A DNA stretch of 35,673 nt from a virus. The position numbers and the translations under genes are program-made. The notes under the pieces are model-generated. The model did not search any database, was not told the DNA's origin, and was given only the letters and a program-made list of their open reading frames with translations. The stretch is taken from the IMG/VR virus record IMGVR_UViG_3300045988_058856, positions 1 through 35,673 of that record. The stretch is one strand, 5' to 3'. Below are positions 3,179 through 33,827 of the stretch, piece by piece (positions within the stretch are counted from its first letter, which is position 1; every line of letters begins with the position of its first letter).

Positions 3179-3361
3179 TTAAATTCTTCCGTTTCTTAAT
3201 TGGTTCAACTCGTTCATCTTATTTATAGCGGCTTCTTCTGATATTTCCAAAGACGCCGTACTTTTATCATAACCGTCTATAACGGCAAAATATCCTTTTC
3301 TCAACGGTTTAATGTAAAACTCGTTTTTGCTGTGGTTCTTTAAATAGGCTTGTACTTTCAT
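3179..3361 (-). CDS. Hypothetical small protein (60 aa from ATG 3361; the tracked ORF start at 3397 is GTG inside the promoter cassette)
   Basis: ATG at 3361 lies 39 nt downstream of the -7 box, the same spacing as in the paralogous cassette at 5316/5276. Confidence 0.5.
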   Translation of the reverse strand: MKVQAYLKNHSKNEFYIKPLRKGYFAVIDGYDKSTASLEISEEAAINKMNELNQLRNGRI

Positions 3362-3399
3362 ATCTTTAATTTTTAAGTGGTTATTTCCTTTTGACACTT

Positions 3400-3430
3400 C
3401 AAAGATACGACTAGTTATCAGACTACCAAA
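3400..3430 (-). promoter_or_regulatory. Bacteroidota-type promoter, early cassette copy 1
   Basis: On the coding strand, TTTG (3430..3427), a 19-nt spacer, then TAtcTTTG (3407..3400). The ~50-nt block 3381-3431 is near-identical to 5297-5347. Confidence 0.6.
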
Positions 3431-3475
3431 ATATAGGATAAACTATTAACATCAATTCGCACTAACCGCCATGAG

Positions 3476-3784
3476 TTAACGCCCGTTAACATAAAAGTCT
3501 ATCAAATCCTTCAAATCGTTGTACTCGTCAGGGTTCGACACTACTCGCACATTGAAGTCAAGCGCGGCGATACGATCCAGTATAACACGCTGGATCGGTC
3601 TAGGTTTGCATCCGGTTGACTTGAACTCGACAAAGATAACCGTCCCACCCGGTAACAAGTACATCCGATCCGGCAAACCGTTAATAAATTGGGACAGCAA
3701 TTTGATTGCCATCCCTCCTTTATTCTCCACGTACTTAGACATAGTACGTTCAAATACCTTTTCACTGGTTTCCGTTGCCTTCAT
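3476..3784 (-). CDS. VRR-NUC domain nuclease (PD-(D/E)XK fold)
   Basis: 102 aa. GLPDRMYLLPGGTVIFVEFKSTGCKPRPIQ fits the VRR-NUC PD...E.K...Q pattern. This family is typically found next to an SNF2 helicase. Confidence 0.75.
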   Translation of the reverse strand: MKATETSEKVFERTMSKYVENKGGMAIKLLSQFINGLPDRMYLLPGGTVIFVEFKSTGCKPRPIQRVILDRIAALDFNVRVVSNPDEYNDLKDLIDFYVNGR

Positions 3785-4031
3785 CCGGTCTTTGTATTCT
3801 TAGTACTCCATTGTTCGCCACCTTGCACGCTGCCCTTAACGCTACATAGTTCTTCCGGGCTTGTGACGCCTTCTTCCATGTCAGACCGACGCACCCTTCC
3901 AGGTCTTTCCAGCTGTCGTTAGCCTTGTTATACACTTGCAGCTTAAACATTCCGCAAAAATCTCCTGTGTACTTGTCCGGTGTGATGCGTGTCGCACCGT
4001 CCCTTGATTTTAATTTTTTCTTGTTACTCAT
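3762..4031 (-). CDS. Hypothetical early protein (89 aa)
   Basis: ATG start. Overlaps the downstream gene by 23 nt. Confidence 0.5.
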   Translation of the reverse strand: MSNKKKLKSRDGATRITPDKYTGDFCGMFKLQVYNKANDSWKDLEGCVGLTWKKASQARKNYVALRAACKVANNGVLRIQRPDEGNGNQ

Positions 4032-5276: not shown

Positions 5277-5315
5277 GATTCTAATTTTTTAATTGGTTTA
5301 TTTCCTTTTGACACT

Positions 5316-5376
5316 TCAAAGATACAACAAGTTATTGAACTACCAAAACTTTTCTCAAAAAACTTTAGTATATTAA
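5316..5376 (-). promoter_or_regulatory. Bacteroidota-type promoter, early cassette copy 2, with upstream element
   Basis: TTTG (5346..5343), a 19-nt spacer, then TAtcTTTG (5323..5316). The 22-nt element at 5355-5376 matches 12996-13017 (20/22) at the same 8-nt gap upstream of the -33 box. Confidence 0.6.
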
Positions 5377-5412
5377 CAAAAATAAAGTCTCGCGTATCAC
5401 TACGAAAGACTT
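5374..5412 (-). terminator. Weak intrinsic-terminator-like hairpin downstream of the primase-helicase gene
   Basis: AAAGTCT (5383-5389) and AGACTTT (5406-5412) form a 7-bp stem, followed on the coding strand by ATTTTTGTT. The stem is AU-rich with a long loop, so it is weak. Confidence 0.3.
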
Positions 5413-5472
5413 TTTAACTGAAAAACCACCCTAAAAGTATTAACCTTAAAAATTAGAAAAGAAAGTTTTGCA

Positions 5473-7863
5473 TCACAAAGATAGTAATTTTTTGCTTTCC
5501 TCGCTACCTTTACGCACATAAACTACTTGTTGGCCGTACAATTTCGTTCTTTTTAACTTTCCTTTGTACCAACCTTTCATTTGTCGCATCGCCGTGGACA
5601 ATTCGCGCCCTTTCGCGCTTGTATAATCTTCTTTCCGGCGTCCCAGCGCATCCACCCAAAGCTCCATTAAACAGAACTCGTTTTTAACCGTGTCGCCTAT
5701 CTCGCCCAAACCGCCCGATAGGAAGTCCGCGCGTTGTTGTTCGGTGCGCTCTTCGTAGTCAGCCGGGAAAAGTCTATCTACATAGTTCTCTATAATACCT
5801 ACTAGAGGACTTTCTTCTGTAAATTCTTCGCGACCTTCACTTGCAATCGCTTCTGCTTCATCGGATAAGATAAGACTTTCCCCGCACATGTACAACTCCA
5901 TTGCTTCCGCCCATAGTTGGTCTACGACTTTTTCAAATGACTTGTCAAACAGCTTATGCGTGTTCCGGTTGGCGCGCACCTCTATAGGGAAGAAACGGCG
6001 GTTTCCGGTCTTATCCTTCAAAAACTCATCATCATTGGTAGACCCAAAAAATACGCACTGCCTCCTGTGTGTCTTGACACGGCGGGCGTATGCGCTACGG
6101 TACGTATCCTCGCGCTTGCTGATAAAATTCTTCGTGGCTTCTACGTCCGAACGGCGAAGGGCTGACAACTCGGCTAGCTCCACTATCCAGGCATGTTGTA
6201 TCGCTTCGTATGCTTTTTGGCCGGACACGTCCGTTAATGAATCATTAAACCAACCTTTTGAAAGCGCCTGTATAAGCGTGGACTTCCCCGCGCCCTGCCC
6301 GGAATACATCACAAGCGCGGTGTCAAATTTGCGTCCCGGCTCGTACACCCTAGTAACGGCGGCTACCAGCATTTTACGGAACGCCTCGGAAACATATATG
6401 CTAGGCTCTGCTCCCATGTAGTCAACTAAGAAATTATCTATCCGTTTCACGCCGTCCCATACCAGGCTCTCCAAGTATTTCTTGATAGGGTGGAAAGCGT
6501 TTTCGCTGCAAACCTTTTCCAGCGCATCAGTTAATTTGCTGTCATTGTAAATACCGTGCAAATCCTCGATGCGTCCGCGGATAATCGCTACTGCTGTATC
6601 GTCCAGCATGTCGCCCTTCTTGATATCATTCGAGAAAAACGGCGTACGGGTGTACACTATCGTATCAAGAAACAAGTCATACGCTAATAGATCATTGAGG
6701 AGAGGATCACATTTGAACGCGTTGACGAAGTTACGGACGGTGCACATTTTATCGCCCTTCTTATCCAGGTCCCAAACAAGCTCGGCGGCGGTCTGCGCGT
6801 CGCTCTTAACCTCGTCCGTGTATTCCTCGAAGTCACTTAGATTATCGTCAACGGCTACCATATCTTTAACGCATTCCTTATCGGCGCAAACTAGCTTGTT
6901 CATCTCGCGAGTACTGTCTTCTTTACCCAGGTGCCCGAACTTGTGCACCCGTACGAGATCATAGGCGTTGTATGCGTGTCCGTCTCCGATCGGATCGGTT
7001 GAGTGGTGGGAAAAACAAAGTACATCGTCATACACTACCAAGCCCGCCGCGCCTGATCCAAGCGTGTAGGTATAGCGTCCGTTGTCTACTTCCGTGTAAA
7101 CGTCCGGTAGGTATTTCTCTATGGCTTCCGGTATGGTGTACGAGCGGCAAAACGCGCCCACCAAACCCTCTTTGTCTCTAGGGTCTTTCACCATCTCCTT
7201 ACTAATCAGCGCGCGGGTATCGCGTTCCACATCTGAATGGAACGCCCATTTGCGCACGTCGCGCCATTCTTCATTGTCTCCGTACAAGCCTACCAGATAC
7301 TCGGCGTCGATCGGCTCGCCTTCAAACACTTCGAATAGCCCTTCTTGATCCTTAGAAAGGGATTGCCAGTACATCATACGTTCCGGCTGAAACGTTGTTT
7401 TGTCGAACAAGTCGATACCTAACAGCTCGGCTACTTTCCGCGCGGCTGCCTCGTACATAACCACGTCTGTAACCTCTTCTTTGAACGGCATAATAAGACG
7501 GTAACGGCGCGCGCCTGGTCTATCCGAACGCGTCGTATATATAACCGCTGCATAACCGTGAAAACGATCCTCAAAGTCTATCGGGAATAGATCATCGGCA
7601 AAGTCAATATCTAGCGTTATCATTGTGCGGGACATAACTGCCTTCTTGAGGCGTTGCGATCCTGACAGCTCGCCCGCCATGAATCCGCCTACATCCTTCA
7701 AAGACGATTTAGCGGGCTTATCCAGTTTGTCGTACTCGCGTACCGTTTCATTAGTGATAACAGGCTCGCCTAAACGTTTAACAAAATCGTCCCATGTGAG
7801 GCGCACCGCCTTCCATTTCAGAGACGCCGAAGAACCTGCGAGCGATAAGGTGTATTTTTCCAT
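5473..7863 (-). CDS. DNA primase-helicase: AEP/PrimPol-like N-terminus fused to a VirE/D5-like P-loop NTPase
   Basis: 796 aa. DxD-type motif ITLDIDFADD near the N-terminus. Walker A GQGAGKST and Walker B-like WIVELAEL in the C-terminal half. Confidence 0.8.
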   Translation of the reverse strand: MEKYTLSLAGSSASLKWKAVRLTWDDFVKRLGEPVITNETVREYDKLDKPAKSSLKDVGGFMAGELSGSQRLKKAVMSRTMITLDIDFADDLFPIDFEDRFHGYAAVIYTTRSDRPGARRYRLIMPFKEEVTDVVMYEAAARKVAELLGIDLFDKTTFQPERMMYWQSLSKDQEGLFEVFEGEPIDAEYLVGLYGDNEEWRDVRKWAFHSDVERDTRALISKEMVKDPRDKEGLVGAFCRSYTIPEAIEKYLPDVYTEVDNGRYTYTLGSGAAGLVVYDDVLCFSHHSTDPIGDGHAYNAYDLVRVHKFGHLGKEDSTREMNKLVCADKECVKDMVAVDDNLSDFEEYTDEVKSDAQTAAELVWDLDKKGDKMCTVRNFVNAFKCDPLLNDLLAYDLFLDTIVYTRTPFFSNDIKKGDMLDDTAVAIIRGRIEDLHGIYNDSKLTDALEKVCSENAFHPIKKYLESLVWDGVKRIDNFLVDYMGAEPSIYVSEAFRKMLVAAVTRVYEPGRKFDTALVMYSGQGAGKSTLIQALSKGWFNDSLTDVSGQKAYEAIQHAWIVELAELSALRRSDVEATKNFISKREDTYRSAYARRVKTHRRQCVFFGSTNDDEFLKDKTGNRRFFPIEVRANRNTHKLFDKSFEKVVDQLWAEAMELYMCGESLILSDEAEAIASEGREEFTEESPLVGIIENYVDRLFPADYEERTEQQRADFLSGGLGEIGDTVKNEFCLMELWVDALGRRKEDYTSAKGRELSTAMRQMKGWYKGKLKRTKLYGQQVVYVRKGSEESKKLLSL

Positions 7864-10594: not shown

Positions 10595-10624
10595 CAAAGA
10601 TATTACTTTATTTTAGACTTCAAA
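10595..10624 (-). promoter_or_regulatory. Bacteroidota-type promoter for the SSB gene
   Basis: TTTG (10624..10621), an 18-nt spacer, then TAtcTTTG (10602..10595). It lies 30 nt upstream of ATG 10565. Confidence 0.55.
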
Positions 10625-10660: not shown

Positions 10661-11824
10661 TTAGCCTTCTACGTCGAAGTCACAGAGCGGGCTATATTCT
10701 ACGCCCTTAGCGGATTCCGGCACTAGCTTTGGCGCTCCGGGTCTAGATTCGATCGCGTCTCCGAACCTCGCGCTAAACACCTTCTTGCCTACCAGCTTTT
10801 CGAGGTCGCCTATACCCTTTAACTTGATGTTTAAAACCTCGTCCTCTAGGAACTCGTTTAGAAGCGCTTGGCGTATCTTCGCCTCGTCCTTGATAACTCG
10901 GCTGGTTCTACCCGCTACGAGCTTGTAGCCCTCCCATTTGTGCCCCTGTATCGCTCTATCGTAGACGTACTTATTAACTGATTCGATCCAGCTCTTATAC
11001 GTGTCGATCTTGCCGATTAGGTCTACTATCTCCTCGTCTGATAATAACAGGGGCTCGGGCTTTTCTTCGAAGTCTGCAAGAATGGCGTCACGTTGCGCCC
11101 TGCATTGAGCCTTAACCGGACAGAATCCGCACCAACTTCCGATAACCTGCTTTCCTTTGCCCTGTATTGCTGCTTTTGCGGCCGGTTTCAGTACTTTTTC
11201 CGCCCAGTCGAGTAACTCACCCTTCGACATCTCGAAAGTGTCGTAGTGGTCTAGTCTTACCTGTGCGATCGTCATTCGAATTTTCTCGATATGATCCGTT
11301 TCCAGGCTTTTCAAGGTTCCAAGGGCGTACATTAACATTTGCTCGTTCATGTCGGCATACACCTTCACGCCTGCACCGTATTTCAGGTCTATGATGTGTA
11401 TCGTCTTGTCAGATACTAGCGTTACGTCTACCGATCCGAACGAATCCGGCGCGAAGTCTGTAATGTCTACCCGACGCTCTAGGAACGTACGGCACGCGCC
11501 GTCCTGCTTTTGCATCTCGTAGCCTTCCCCGATAACAAACTCACAATAGCTCCTTATATAGTCCGCCATATCGATACCGAAGAGCGGGTTTTCGAGATGT
11601 TCGTTTTTCAACGGTACTGCATCATCAATTATCGGATCGTATTCACCTTCCAGGTATTTGGTCAAAGCGTATTCGGCTATCTCGTGGGCTAGTGTCCCCT
11701 CCTCTGCGTAAACGCTTGACTTGCTGCCTGCGGCTTCCGCTAGTAGCGCCGATGGAGTGCAATTTATCCATCGTTTTGCGCTACTCGGCGATAAAATCGC
11801 GTGATCTCTTTCTGCGTGTCCCAT
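10661..11824 (-). CDS. PD-(D/E)XK exonuclease, Cas4/RecB-like (DUF2800-type), with Cys cluster
   Basis: 387 aa. N-terminal SPSSAKRWINC plus C-terminal CGFCPVKAQC give a 4-Cys pattern. IDLKYG is a nuclease-core-like motif. Confidence 0.75.
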   Translation of the reverse strand: MGHAERDHAILSPSSAKRWINCTPSALLAEAAGSKSSVYAEEGTLAHEIAEYALTKYLEGEYDPIIDDAVPLKNEHLENPLFGIDMADYIRSYCEFVIGEGYEMQKQDGACRTFLERRVDITDFAPDSFGSVDVTLVSDKTIHIIDLKYGAGVKVYADMNEQMLMYALGTLKSLETDHIEKIRMTIAQVRLDHYDTFEMSKGELLDWAEKVLKPAAKAAIQGKGKQVIGSWCGFCPVKAQCRAQRDAILADFEEKPEPLLLSDEEIVDLIGKIDTYKSWIESVNKYVYDRAIQGHKWEGYKLVAGRTSRVIKDEAKIRQALLNEFLEDEVLNIKLKGIGDLEKLVGKKVFSARFGDAIESRPGAPKLVPESAKGVEYSPLCDFDVEG

Positions 11825-12387
11825 TACAGACGAGTTGAGATGTATTCGATGAACTCCGCAAACATAGATTCCTTAAGTGTCGGGAAAGACGTTGCGCCTA
11901 CCTGTTCAAATGCTTCTTGCACTAGGGGTCTTTTCTTTGCGTTTAGTGCCTTCATAGCCCATTGCTTACACTCTTCAACTGTGTGTTCCGTTTCGTCCTT
12001 AGCGGGCTTCTCTACGGGCTTCTCTACGGGCTTCTCTACAGGCTTCTCTACGGGTGCTTTCGGGGCAGGCGCGGCTACTTCTTCCACTGGCGCGGGCGCT
12101 TCTTCCGGTTCTTCGATCGGGGCAGGCGCTGGTTCTTCCACCTTCTTCGTGCGGCTCGCTCTAGTCTTAGCGCGTTCCTCCTCCACGTGTTCGGCTACGG
12201 TCTTAACTGGCGCGGATTCTTCGCGCACTTTGGTTGCTTCTACAACTGTGTCCGCCAGTTTGTCAAGGTCGGTTTTACGTTCCGTTACTTCTGGCACGGC
12301 TTCTCCTGCTAGTTCGCGCAAATAGTTAGACGTCGCCAACAAATCCTGTTTACTCTCGTTTCCTAATAATTCGATTACTACTTTCAT
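11824..12387 (-). CDS. Hypothetical acidic protein with (PVEK)4 tandem repeat
   Basis: 187 aa. The 12-nt unit gggcttctctac occurs x4 at 12004-12051. TAATG overlap downstream and ATGA overlap upstream. Confidence 0.6.
   Translation of the reverse strand: MKVVIELLGNESKQDLLATSNYLRELAGEAVPEVTERKTDLDKLADTVVEATKVREESAPVKTVAEHVEEERAKTRASRTKKVEEPAPAPIEEPEEAPAPVEEVAAPAPKAPVEKPVEKPVEKPVEKPAKDETEHTVEECKQWAMKALNAKKRPLVQEAFEQVGATSFPTLKESMFAEFIEYISTRL
12004..12051. repeat. In-frame 12-nt tandem repeat x4
   Basis: gggcttctctac x3 followed by aggcttctctac. Encodes the PVEK repeats. Confidence 0.9.
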
Positions 12388-12880: not shown

Positions 12881-12956
12881 ATCTAGTAATGTTTAAAACG
12901 ATTCTCCGGTATCGGAATAGTTCAACAAATTTAGTTGGTTTCTCATTTCGGTGTTA

Positions 12957-13017
12957 CAAAGGTACAGCTTTATTCTGAACTGCCAAACGTTTTCCCAAAA
13001 AACTTTAGTAATTTAAC
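12957..13017 (-). promoter_or_regulatory. Early-block promoter P_A with upstream element
   Basis: TTTG (12987..12984), a 19-nt spacer, then TAccTTTG (12964..12957). The -33 region and the 22-nt upstream element (12996-13017) are homologous to the cassette at 5331-5376. Confidence 0.55.
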
Positions 13018-13048
13018 TCTGATTAACTGTTTTGAAGGTTTGATAACA

Positions 13049-13438
13049 GTGTAAAAGATGAATGGCCGTTTTTCAACGTATCTTTTACACCTTAACTGCG
13101 TGCGTATCAGATAGTTAAGTGGCAAAAACGGGAGAAATGTAAAAGATGGAAAGATGTTTTCTATAAAGTTTAAAATAAAATATTTCCATAAATTCATTCA
13201 CATATTAATTCATATATTTACATATTTTATAGATTATAGTACTTTTTCATTTTTATCTCTATATAACATCTTTACATCTTTTACAAATGATATATACAGA
13301 TAGATAAAATACTAGTTATTAGTGAGTTAAGTGTAAAAGATACAAATTTTAATCTTTTACATGCAAAAACGCCAACTCGTTAAGAATCAGCGTTTTAAAT
13401 TTTTGAGTGTAAAAGATGAAAAGCGTTTTGTAAAAGAT
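13049..13438. repeat. Iteron array A: eight full TGTAAAAGAT boxes (plus one degenerate copy) around an AT-rich core
   Basis: Forward boxes at 13050, 13138, 13332, 13408 and 13429. Reverse boxes at 13080, 13276 and 13352, plus a degenerate copy at 13268. AT-rich core about 13157-13267. No credible ORF. Confidence 0.85.
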
Positions 13439-13446
13439 GGAAGGCG

Positions 13447-18082: not shown

Positions 18083-18619
18083 TTAAGTTAATTTAGCGGT
18101 TCGGATCGTGCTCCAAGCCGTACCGTTTAGAATTATACGATTCTCACCTCTTGCATCGTCCGGCGTCTTGATCGTTACCGTAGTAAAACCGCCGTTCGCA
18201 CTTGAATCCGTATCAGCTTGAGAAATTTCAAGCCCACATTTATATCCTGCCATAATAGGCGCAGAATTAAGATCGTTCAACTTAAGAGCCACCATAAACC
18301 GTCCGGATAATAATGCCGACATGATCTCACTAGCGTTTAGAACGCCCTTCTCGTAAACGGTGAATATAACCGATTGGTCTAAACCCGCTGAAACATCTGA
18401 TAGCTTAAGAGCTTCTACCAACTTCGCGCCATTCTTGTAACATTCAACCGGAACTGTTTTCGCTCCGGACTTCAACGTAATAGCCGTCATATAGTTAGAC
18501 CTGGTTACCGTTGACGCTGTTACGTCGTCAAAGTTAATCAGATACATTTCAGCGATACCTACGCTGCCGGGTTGGCAGTCGTAGGTAATTGCTTTATTCA
18601 ATGTCTTAATACAAGCCAT
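18083..18619 (-). CDS. Structural paralogue 1 of 3 (178 aa)
   Basis: MACIKTLNKAITYDC and SSANGGFTTVTIKTPD. Immediately downstream of the capsid gene. Confidence 0.65.
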   Translation of the reverse strand: MACIKTLNKAITYDCQPGSVGIAEMYLINFDDVTASTVTRSNYMTAITLKSGAKTVPVECYKNGAKLVEALKLSDVSAGLDQSVIFTVYEKGVLNASEIMSALLSGRFMVALKLNDLNSAPIMAGYKCGLEISQADTDSSANGGFTTVTIKTPDDARGENRIILNGTAWSTIRTAKLT

Positions 18620-18631
18620 CTATTTTTGTTT

Positions 18632-19588
18632 TTAAACGCCTGCCGCCAGGCACATTTTAGTAAATTCGGGAACTGCAAGCATCGCGTCTGCTGCAAATAC
18701 AGTAGTACTGTAATATTTGCGATCCTTCGCGTCTCTCATGAACGGCGCAATATCCAGTGTGGAATCTTCCAACGCCAACTGCATGTTACGTTTCGGCCCG
18801 AAAACGATGAAGCTCTGAACTGTCAAAGCGTCAGCTTTTGCGCTATTAGAAACGTGGCGCAATTCGTTGATCTTGTATCCTTCGAAGTAATAGGCGGGTT
18901 TTCCGTCCTCGAAATTAGCCTGTGCCAAATGATTGTCTTTGGCTTCTACCAAATCTTTGTAAGCGCGCATAATGTTACTTGATACGAAGAATTCGCTTTC
19001 TTCAAGCATGTCCGGGCGCTGATTGTCAACACACCATTTCAGGCACTCCAATACGTTAGCGCCTGCACCCGACGGAACAAGTGCTTTGATCTCCTGCGCA
19101 CTATTCTGCATCTGCTTAATAATACCGCCGTTTTTGAAAACAGTGTAAACACCTGCTGTATCAGAAGTTTTCAGACCGTCCAACCAAGTAAGACGCAACA
19201 TGTCAGCCTCCAAAACCTTAAGAATTTCGTTCTGCATGAATGCAGCCAACTGTGTTTGGTCGAAATCAGCCGACAAATGTACACCTTTCGCTACCATTTT
19301 GCCCCACAGGTCTTGCAGACATACCACGATAGGAAGCTCAATTTGCGCGTGATCGTAATATTTCACCTTATCGCTCATGGAGCTATAAGTATATTCGCTA
19401 TCGCATCCCGAAGAACGTCTTACTGCCTTGTCTACGGCTGTAAACGACACGATAGGAAAGCCCTTTTCAATTCCGGAAAGAACGGTTACACCTCTCTCCA
19501 ATTCACCTTCTAGTCCCAGCGTCAATGTGATAACGTCCGAGAGGGTGTTGATATTCAACTTGTTTAAGTCGCTAAATGTAAATGCCAT
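18632..19588 (-). CDS. Major capsid protein candidate
   Basis: 318 aa, directly after the scaffold-like gene. Assigned by size and position, with no database search. Confidence 0.55.
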   Translation of the reverse strand: MAFTFSDLNKLNINTLSDVITLTLGLEGELERGVTVLSGIEKGFPIVSFTAVDKAVRRSSGCDSEYTYSSMSDKVKYYDHAQIELPIVVCLQDLWGKMVAKGVHLSADFDQTQLAAFMQNEILKVLEADMLRLTWLDGLKTSDTAGVYTVFKNGGIIKQMQNSAQEIKALVPSGAGANVLECLKWCVDNQRPDMLEESEFFVSSNIMRAYKDLVEAKDNHLAQANFEDGKPAYYFEGYKINELRHVSNSAKADALTVQSFIVFGPKRNMQLALEDSTLDIAPFMRDAKDRKYYSTTVFAADAMLAVPEFTKMCLAAGV

Positions 19589-32435: not shown

Positions 32436-33142
32436 TTCTTCTCCTCCTCGCCCTTATGGTCCTTCTTGAAATCTTTCAGTTTCCCCATCCTCGCGGACGC
32501 TTTCGGATCGGTGACGTTAACCGTCAAGCCGCCCTTGATACTCTCGCCGTTGGACGTGTAGTCCATCTGCATCTTGATCCCTCGTAGTGCCCTGATATAT
32601 TGCGCGTCGAACTGCCCGACGCTCGCACCCTGATCCATGTCCGCCGCGATCTCGGCGCGTATGCGGTCTATCGTATCTACGAAGTCCTTGCAAACCGATA
32701 AGCCGAACTCCTCGAAGTTCTTCATGTAGGTCTGCCTCCGCTCTGATATATAAGATACGGACGCCCCCAGGAAAGCCGTAAACTCACTTTCGCTTTGCAA
32801 GTGCTTCTTCGGCACTTCATAGAGCGTCCCGGCGGCCGGGCCGGACTTTATCGCCTCGTACACTATAACGGGCGTGGCCTCGCACCAAGCCGCGTAAATG
32901 GCATAGGCTTCCCATAGCTCGGCGGGGTCCTGCCAGACGGGCGTTTTACCGAACCGGCGCGTAGCCAGCTGGTAACAACGGGTGCACTCGAACGAATCAG
33001 AGAGGTATTGCGTAGTCGCGTACATAGGTTTTAGAGCACGAGCGCCACACGCCGCTTTAATTCGCTCCTCCGCTACGGGCTTCTCCTTTGGAAGCTCCAC
33101 GGGCTTCGTGGTTTCTGTTATTTGTTTCTTCTTTGTAGCCAT
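32432..33142 (-). CDS. terS: Terminase small subunit candidate
   Basis: 236 aa, ATGA-coupled to terL. Basic N-terminus, PAELWEAYAIYAAWCE motif and HTH-like FTAFLGASVSYISERR. Confidence 0.55.
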   Translation of the reverse strand: MATKKKQITETTKPVELPKEKPVAEERIKAACGARALKPMYATTQYLSDSFECTRCYQLATRRFGKTPVWQDPAELWEAYAIYAAWCEATPVIVYEAIKSGPAAGTLYEVPKKHLQSESEFTAFLGASVSYISERRQTYMKNFEEFGLSVCKDFVDTIDRIRAEIAADMDQGASVGQFDAQYIRALRGIKMQMDYTSNGESIKGGLTVNVTDPKASARMGKLKDFKKDHKGEEEKK

Positions 33143-33166
33143 ATAATTTTATTTTACATTCCTGTA

Positions 33167-33194
33167 CAAAAGTAATCATTTCACCCGTCTCAAA
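33167..33194 (-). promoter_or_regulatory. Late-block promoter candidate P_B
   Basis: TTTG (33194..33191), a 16-nt spacer (shorter than the 18-19 nt seen in the early promoters), then TActTTTG (33174..33167). It lies 25 nt upstream of the terS ATG. Confidence 0.4.
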
Positions 33195-33275
33195 CGCCCT
33201 GTACGCCTACATAATCCGTAAAATTCGCTCTAACTGATTCAAACACAGCACTTTAGCTAAATAGGCCGTTTTTAG

Positions 33276-33653
33276 TGTAAAAGATAGAATTATACCATCT
33301 TTTACACCCTAACTAATTGCGTATCAGTGAGTTACAGGCAAAAAACGGCTAATGTAAAAGATGAAACATACTTTCTCTATTAGTTCTAAAATAAAAAAAA
33401 AGACGAAATAAATTATTTAAAATAACAATAGTATATTTATGTTAACTATATTTCTTCTTTTTAAAAGGTACTCTATAGTAATCATCTTTACATCTTTTAC
33501 AAACAGTATATATTACAGTATAAAGTATTATAAATAAGCAAGTTAGGTGTAAAAGATACAAATTTTAATCTTTTACATCAAAAACTTGAAAAGTGCGTTC
33601 TGCGTCCTGTGAGTGTGGTAGGTGTAAAAGATGAAAGGTGATTTGTAAAAGAT
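33276..33653. repeat. Iteron array B: same eight-box syntax as array A
   Basis: Forward boxes at 33276, 33353, 33548, 33623 and 33644. Reverse boxes at 33297, 33492 and 33568, plus a degenerate copy at 33484. The 32-nt block 33547-33578 is identical to 13331-13362. AT-rich core about 33363-33483. Confidence 0.85.
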
Positions 33654-33782
33654 GTATTTGACTACTTTTTTGTCAAAAACACGCTTTTTAGTTAAAATAC
33701 CGTTAAATTCAAACATTTTCTCTAAAAAGTTTTCTCTCACAAAGTTTTTTCCGAAGTGCGTCAGAAGCATGTTAACAATTTT

Positions 33783-33819
33783 AACACAAAAAGGGATTAA
33801 CGTTTTTATACATTAACCC
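33783..33819 (-). terminator. Rho-independent terminator ending the early block
   Basis: Coding strand reads GGGTTAATG-N8-CGTTAATCCC (9 bp including one G-U pair, with one bulged nt) followed by TTTTTGTGTT. The stem starts 8 nt after the stop at 33828. Confidence 0.55.
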
Positions 33820-33827
33820 CTCAATCC

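Follow-up and report, generated by a model that had tools for sequence, protein, structure and literature searches.

The α protein of satellite phage P4 is a single polypeptide with primase and SF3 helicase parts and, at its C-terminus, a winged helix that binds the origin, and in P4 the same short iteron is found at two loci of one small circular genome, ori and the auxiliary element crr, which lie 4.5 kb apart. The Rep proteins of SaPIs (Staphylococcus aureus pathogenicity islands) are at once self-loading helicases and initiators, and recognise iterons through a C-terminal winged helix (PMC9371898). A SaPI origin has an AT-rich centre surrounded by 6 to 12 iterons; each side bears two or more, pointing in opposite directions, and two Rep hexamers are believed to be loaded there, flanking the centre (PMC9371898). 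Bacillus phage SPP1 possesses two similarly organised origins, both bound by gp38; replication has been reconstituted from oriL, while oriR is proposed to stall forks, triggering the switch to concatemers (PMC6316719).

Iteron origins read by SF3 initiator-helicases and phage genomes with two initiator-binding loci are both known already. We report here on a Bacteroides phage genome in which two distant intergenic gaps carry the same array of 10-bp boxes. The interpretation that we favour, with a probability of roughly 0.7, is that the boxes are iterons of the phage primase-helicase and that the arrays are two replication-origin modules of the SaPI type. A search of the literature found no published origin for Bacteroides phages of this group; at the level of full text there was no paper on isolates BK687P1, BK735P3, BC422P2 and BO668P1, and nothing was found on phages BKR1 and BKO1-1.

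Two box arrays at the boundaries of the gene blocks

The stretch of DNA analysed (the window) is 35,673 nt long and closes into a 35,618-bp circle through a 55-bp terminal overlap. It is the genome of a virulent gut Bacteroides siphophage, with an AT content of 53%; its nearest relatives (Megablast, ~83% identity) are virulent Bacteroides ovatus isolates from sewage (OP172xxx series, BKR1, BKO1-1, BO1). Every substantial ORF is on the minus strand, and PHROG and Pfam scans delineate two gene blocks. The late block comprises terS (33142-32432, starting at 33142 and coding for a P22 gp3-like small terminase), terL, the structural genes, an endolysin gene and, in last position, the gene of a DUF6549 protein (14025-13447). 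The early block is headed by the genes of a 111-aa protein (12880-12545) and of a 59-aa HTH_17 protein, just after array A; next come an exonuclease, a Gp2.5-like SSB, a family-A DNA polymerase (9917-7869), the primase-helicase (7863-5473) and small ORFs. It crosses the circle junction and ends with a 179-aa protein (34367-33828). Within it, a 462-aa ORF (1455-67) has orthologues in BKR1, BT16 and BO1 that carry a DNA helicase annotation. The replication block holds the fused primase-SF3 helicase, PolA, SSB and exonuclease, and neither a DnaB-type helicase nor a loader was found there. The GC-skew profile is monotonic and gives no origin signal because all genes are co-oriented.

Inside early gene 11824-12387, positions 11983-12070 form a coding 12-nt tandem repeat (CTTCTCTACGGG, ~6 copies) whose unit and copy number differ among relatives. 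Behind the SNF2-type helicase gene, some relatives have genes for DNA methyltransferases (dmt, DAM, a cytosine methyltransferase) and others do not: they are found in L059 (11811-12530), L060 (12464-13189), L065 (12551-13522) and L067 (18246-19887), and none is annotated at that place in the window.

The gaps at the two block boundaries, A (12881-13446) and B (33143-33827), contain or adjoin the following features:

33276-33653: array B, with perfect boxes at 33276 (+), 33297 (-), 33353 (+), 33492 (-), 33548 (+), 33568 (-), 33623 (+) and 33644 (+)
33484-33492, minus strand: degenerate box copy of array B, ATCTTTACA
33363-33483: AT-rich core of array B (81.8% AT), a putative DNA-unwinding element at which boxes are aimed
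13050-13438: array A, with perfect boxes at 13050 (+), 13080 (-), 13138 (+), 13276 (-), 13332 (+), 13352 (-), 13408 (+) and 13429 (+)
13268-13276, minus strand: degenerate box copy of array A
13148-13267: AT-rich core of array A (about 83% AT; 82.8% over 13148-13275)
33791-33822, minus strand: intrinsic terminator closing the early block and, in gene orientation, preceding array B
33167-33194, minus strand: candidate late promoter before terS, TACTTTTG, read by eye, with a TTTG 16 nt upstream (non-canonical spacing)
13366-13396, minus strand: late-block terminator hairpin (13-bp stem, -13.9 kcal/mol, z = -3.9)
12957-12987, minus strand: early-operon promoter of the canonical Bacteroides type (TTTG-N19-TAnnTTTG), downstream of array A in gene orientation

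The box, TGTAAAAGAT, is present in 16 perfect copies in the window, eight in each gap and all of them within the gaps. When up to one mismatch is allowed the number of matches is 17, against 2.6 expected; none of 100 shuffled sequences reached 17. Read in gene orientation, each array begins with two direct boxes 21 nt apart, continues with an inverted pair (10-nt spacer) and then with a box and its degenerate copy, both aimed into an AT core of 120-128 bp (82-83% AT); on the far side, a box aimed back into the core is followed by a second inverted pair. Each array therefore contains eight perfect boxes and one degenerate box, inverted on both sides of an 82% AT core, as in the iteron layout of SaPIs. 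The two loci are also alike in organisation (repeats plus AT-rich element) and have their box in common, as in a two-origin layout. From start to start, the 32-nt blocks that the arrays share (13331-13362 and 33547-33578) are 20,216 bp apart.

A preliminary description of the window, made from the sequence alone, had drawn up the box series of array B. All its positions are correct, including that of the degenerate reverse copy at 33484, and array A has the equivalent series; the 32-nt identity between 33547-33578 and 13331-13362 and the division of the 35,618-bp circle into arcs of about 20.2 and 15.4 kb hold too. The similarity of the flanks had been set too high, at about 80%: we measured ~70% per block, only the second palindrome (100%) and the pair of forward boxes (90%) being above this value. 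Conversely, the cores had been called not alignable, whereas they align at ~71%, a level which is weak for AT-rich DNA. The description had further proposed that what selection maintains is where the boxes are placed and how AT-rich the region is, and not a peptide or an RNA. Our results are consistent with this proposal: an Rfam scan of the whole window returned zero family matches, and the pairing of the arrays persists in relatives with different boxes (see below). Putative hairpins with a conserved loop, CTGATACGCA, lie between boxes, and their stability was no better than that of shuffled sequence (z ~ -0.2).

The upstream part of gap B carries, at 33725-33765, another set of repeats (AAAACTTT and TCTC...GAGA), distinct from the boxes, which may constitute a separate operator. 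These words also rank among the top k-mers of the BKR1 and BC669P1 gaps.

Since all genes are on the minus strand, array B is upstream of terS and the late block, and array A upstream of the early block; the earlier assignment of the arrays to the blocks is thus right once the strand is taken into account. Each array occupies a junction where one block's terminator gives way to the promoter of the following block. The late-block terminator is even located within array A, between the box pair 13408/13429 and the palindrome 13332/13352. The strict TTTG-N19-TAnnTTTG pattern has no match before terS, and transcription of the late operon may need an activator.

This arrangement raises the question of whether the arrays are mainly devices of transcriptional control, on which a DNA-binding protein, possibly the helicase, would shut the early promoter and turn on the late one. 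Besides this position of each array, the lack of a strict canonical promoter in front of the late block and the 59-aa HTH_17 protein encoded just after array A speak for it. However, the boxes closest to a promoter are at least 60 bp (about 60-80) upstream of the -33 element and do not overlap the promoter, and inverted boxes around a 125-bp AT core are the layout of an origin. Together with the association data given below, this makes a mainly transcriptional role unlikely in our opinion; binding of an initiator may have a secondary effect on the early-to-late switch.

Canonical promoters recur within the early block. Three copies of a ~60-90-nt module (3370-3460, 5287-5377 and 12957-13017) each bear a canonical Bacteroides promoter on the minus strand, and a fourth promoter is at 10595-10624; all four are in the early block. 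Six relatives (L010, at 3731-3859; L017, L026, L032, L052 and L054) have ~140 bp inserted after the early promoter, ahead of the first early gene; the insertion, which the window lacks, may represent a small ORF or some leader element. A scan for sigma-70-type promoters gave counts near the shuffle expectation and was discarded as unsuited to Bacteroides.

Conservation and variation of the arrays among relatives

The preliminary description had suggested a search for paired arrays in related genomes. Both arrays were found in 19 of the 19 close GenBank relatives, and the pairing extends to distant syntenic phages. An assembly artefact is ruled out because the arrays differ by ~30% and both occur in all relatives; the 19 isolate genomes and dozens of IMG/VR contigs carry both loci, in forms that differ from each other. 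The distant phages examined, all with the same gene order, were BT16 (B. thetaiotaomicron), C2_18_80S2P (B. uniformis), BV283P3 (Phocaeicola), PM682P4 (Parabacteroides) and BC669P1 (B. caccae), and they keep the same two gaps. In three of them a lineage-specific box is common to both gaps and nearly confined there: GGATAGGTA in BT16, CTGTGCAG in C2_18_80S2P and TGTCGGAACA in BV283P3; in PM682P4 and BC669P1 no box as clearly common to both gaps was apparent. Wherever a lineage was mapped, each of its two arrays has an AT-rich core with inverted boxes about it. Searches of GTDB genomes and IMG/VR, aimed at host copies or satellites with the same iterons, gave for the exact palindrome single scattered matches, none of them in Bacteroides, and box arrays were confined to the known relatives.

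Around the helicase gene of 48 IMG/VR loci, the boxes belong to a family, TGT-N-A-N-AGAT, with TGTAAAAGAT, TGTCAAAGAT and TGTAATAGAT as variants. Both arrays of one genome always agree in box variant: genomes with a higher share of C at box position 4 in array A also have a higher share in array B (Spearman 0.90, p = 4e-4, 10 genomes). Such concerted evolution of dispersed boxes points to a phage-encoded reader. One IMG/VR lineage has two variants, TGTCACAGAT and TGTAATAGAT, each at fixed slots; a single reader offers no obvious explanation for the presence of both boxes. In this lineage (L034, at 3245-3895 and 18210-18984; L037, L038, L042, L055), in which the helicase is 69% identical, both arrays display two tandem TGTAATAGAT upstream of the AT core and TGTCACAGAT downstream.

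In the window and in two relatives (L009 and L018), the terS-proximal half of array B (33143-33362 in the window) copies the A version. Most relatives (e.g. L001, L002) have instead a B-specific terS-proximal half with two direct TGTAAAGAT. As judged from these sequences, the copied half is evidence of recombination between the arrays, and intragenomic conversion thus contributes to the concerted pattern. The box-for-box symmetry of A and B put forward in the preliminary description is due to this A-to-B conversion: it is real in the window but specific to its sub-lineage.

The arrays must also hold sequence-specific information beyond the boxes. In array A, ~60 nt of the core (~13175-13235) are nearly invariant in 21 aligned relatives, far more so than the coding DNA (~83% identical), and conservation of the box columns does not exceed that of the interbox columns among close relatives (divergence of 0.152 versus 0.155). 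The near-invariant stretch contains ATATGTRAAT-like repeats.

The AT cores of A and B differ from each other, and each is conserved among relatives. This, and the B-specific downstream half of most relatives, would be expected if only one array were the true origin, the other being an auxiliary initiator-binding locus, either an enhancer akin to P4 crr or a fork barrier akin to SPP1 oriR that would mediate the passage from theta replication to concatemers; the proposal that oriR is a stall site provides a precedent (PMC6316719). On the other hand, the full layout, with inverted iterons around an AT core, is kept by both arrays in every lineage examined, and the conversion of B towards A in the sub-lineage of the window argues against strongly divergent roles. 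We hold such a division of labour to be possible rather than probable, and retain two origin modules as the preferred reading.

The primase-helicase and the specificity of the boxes

The protein that the co-variation analysis singled out is encoded as follows:

5473-7863, minus strand: primase-helicase gene (796 aa: N-terminal primase, VapE/SF3 ATPase, C-terminal winged helix), the proposed initiator
5476-5742, minus strand: C-terminal winged-helix domain, ~residues 708-796
5530-5532, minus strand: codon 778 (CAA, Gln), at the wing tip, first residue after the wing turn

Close relatives were classed by the base at box position 4 (A or C), and every column of 27 window proteins (those of the early genes, of the two late genes beside array A, terS and terL) was compared with this classification, which amounts to 6,767 tests. 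The top match was residue 778 of the primase-helicase, which is Arg in 10 of the 11 C-type genomes and in 1 of the 20 A-type genomes (p = 2.6e-6). It is ahead of the next best of the 6,767 tests (p = 1.2e-3) by ~450-fold in p-value. The correspondence is of Arg778 with TGTCAAAGAT, and of Gln, Ala or Val778 with TGTAAAAGAT. A stricter test, for private residues, missed residue 778 owing to one exception genome.

Neither linkage nor common descent accounts for the association. Physical linkage is not the cause, because the genes nearer the arrays (coding for the 111-aa, HTH, 192-aa and 179-aa proteins and for terS) show no comparable association. When codon 778 was left out of the helicase tree, a minimum of 8 changes was required for the Arg state and of 9 for the box type, the two tracking each other; since both changed repeatedly, a single clade is not the cause either. 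The association was replicated in 12 isolate genomes outside the discovery set: the nine with Arg778 all had C boxes (36-100%), and the three without it had none (0%; Fisher p = 0.0045). When all box positions were compared with all residues from 660 to 796 in 46 pooled genomes, C at position 4 again went with Arg778 (p = 1.5e-8; mean C fraction of 0.52 versus 0.02), the next pair being at 8.6e-5. There are exceptions to the rule, namely L024 (Arg with A-type boxes) and L023 (Ala with mixed boxes).

The co-variation shows a functional coupling between residue 778 and base 4, and the two may be in direct contact. Pairing of Arg with a C:G base pair at position 4, where the guanine is on the other strand, is chemically plausible. 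The residues on either side of position 778, G777 and Q779, are invariant across 40 homologues, and it is in its last 100 residues that the protein diverges most between lineages with different boxes. On these sequence comparisons, the 796-aa primase-helicase is the likely reader of the box.

The small proteins considered as box readers (111 aa, 59-aa HTH_17, 187 aa, 160 aa, 179 aa and terS) gave no signal comparable to that of the helicase, and no transcription factor among the proteins scanned was associated with the boxes. That the HTH protein and the other small early proteins lack an association with box type which the helicase has is a further point against a mainly transcriptional role. 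The preliminary description had envisaged one regulator acting on both arrays; one protein does probably read both, but it would be a replication initiator and not a transcription factor.

Its weaker alternative, a pac role for array B, finds no positive support here. Array B adjoins terS, so that this array, or both, could be read by the small terminase; the GenBank records of relatives are circularly permuted, in a way compatible with headful packaging, and columns 59 and 66 of terS are weakly associated with box type (p = 0.003). That association is nonetheless ~1,000-fold weaker than the helicase's (0.003 versus 2.6e-6), and it is to the helicase that the box reader maps. A pac site would also have to be reconciled with two equivalent arrays 20 kb apart, and with the many GenBank and IMG/VR records that begin or stop in the coding tandem repeat and not in the arrays, which suggests that their ends are assembly breakpoints rather than genome ends. 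A packaging function is, in our estimation, very improbable.

The primase-helicase has, in sequence and in fold, the features of a SaPI-type initiator, i.e. an SF3 helicase of the VapE type followed by a C-terminal winged helix. It contains the Pfam VapE-like_dom (2.2e-76), and residues 386-711 match SaPI1 Rep1 (PDB 7PDS) with E = 2.8e-74 (phmmer against PDB). A homologue search with the C-terminal domain alone yielded 9 shallow matches, and residues 386-796 were used instead: the AlphaFold2 model of this segment (411 aa, 40 homologues) has a pLDDT of 90.5, and in it the C-terminus displays the order H-S-H-H-S-wing-S of a canonical winged helix. The best Foldseek matches of the model were the six chains of 7PDS (TM 0.83-0.87); these extend over ~425 columns, so the structural match includes the C-terminal domain.

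Proposed mechanism and comparison with known systems

The suggestion of twin origins made in the preliminary description is the one that the evidence favours, in view of the inverted iterons beside an AT core and of a probable reader resembling SaPI Rep; either or both modules may fire. In the mechanism that we propose, the early promoter would drive expression of the primase-helicase, and the C-terminal winged helix of the latter would bind the 10-bp iterons of both arrays. On the model of SaPI Rep, hexamers of the helicase would assemble at either edge of the ~125-bp, 82% AT core and melt it. The N-terminal primase would then prime synthesis, with a handover to the family-A polymerase and the Gp2.5-like SSB. 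Iteron specificity evolves in concert, with a single wing residue, 778, tracking box position 4.

A more speculative extension, to which we attach a low probability, is that the initiator sits at both block boundaries, possibly bridging them, and not only fires replication but also shuts the early and opens the late promoter, or else arrests forks and so leads to concatemers; rapid, concerted switching of the iterons would then shield co-infecting relatives from one another's initiators.

If the preferred reading of two iteron origins is correct, it provides concrete origin and initiator candidates for a large and abundant group of virulent Bacteroidales phages of the human gut, parts which might be of use in phage engineering and for shuttle replicons. 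It would also carry the SaPI-type mechanism of self-loading helicases beyond the satellites of Firmicutes, into tailed phages of Bacteroidales, where the layout is duplicated and rep-distal. The variants suggest a rule of one residue and one base for the wing of a winged helix (Gln, Ala or Val with A; Arg with C), and their series offers a system for studying the joint change of an initiator and its iterons at ~16 dispersed sites.

Among the systems described, the P4 α protein is like the phage helicase in its described domain architecture, and P4, like our phage, repeats one short iteron at two separate loci. P4 crr differs from the phage loci in that it is an auxiliary element and not a second AT-cored origin, whereas A and B are near-duplicates.

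SPP1, like our phage, is a lytic siphophage; each of its two origins combines repeats with an AT-rich unwinding element, and a single phage initiator binds both. They are ~13 kb apart on the circle (PMC6316719), and one of them is intergenic and bracketed by transcription signals. SPP1 differs in that gp38 is unrelated to the phage helicase and depends on two further proteins, a loader and a DnaB-type helicase, in that oriL lies inside the initiator gene, and in that its repeats are direct, unlike those of the phage arrays.

The closest relationship is with the SaPIs. SaPI Rep (PDB 7PDS, 7OLA) is a homologous initiator, C-terminal winged helix included, and SaPI5 PriRep5 is, like the phage protein, a primase fused to a helicase. 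Both systems place multiple iterons, oppositely oriented, about a central AT-rich region, and iteron specificity is not the same from one element to the next. The differences concern the length of the iterons (10 bp in the phage versus 5-6 bp in SaPI), the number of arrays per genome (two versus one), the type of element and host (a virulent tailed Bacteroides phage versus a Firmicutes satellite) and the long interbox stretches, which are conserved in the phage arrays, unlike in SaPI. Moreover, the SaPI ori is directly 3' of rep, whereas the phage arrays are away from the initiator gene, ~5 kb upstream and ~7 kb downstream of it, and the 196-bp gap that follows the helicase gene (5277-5472) contains no box. 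To conclude, what the phage adds to these systems is the combination of both known features, the Bacteroidales host group, a rep-distal duplicated layout at two block boundaries that is conserved across a wide phage family, and a natural specificity series with one identified determinant, residue 778.
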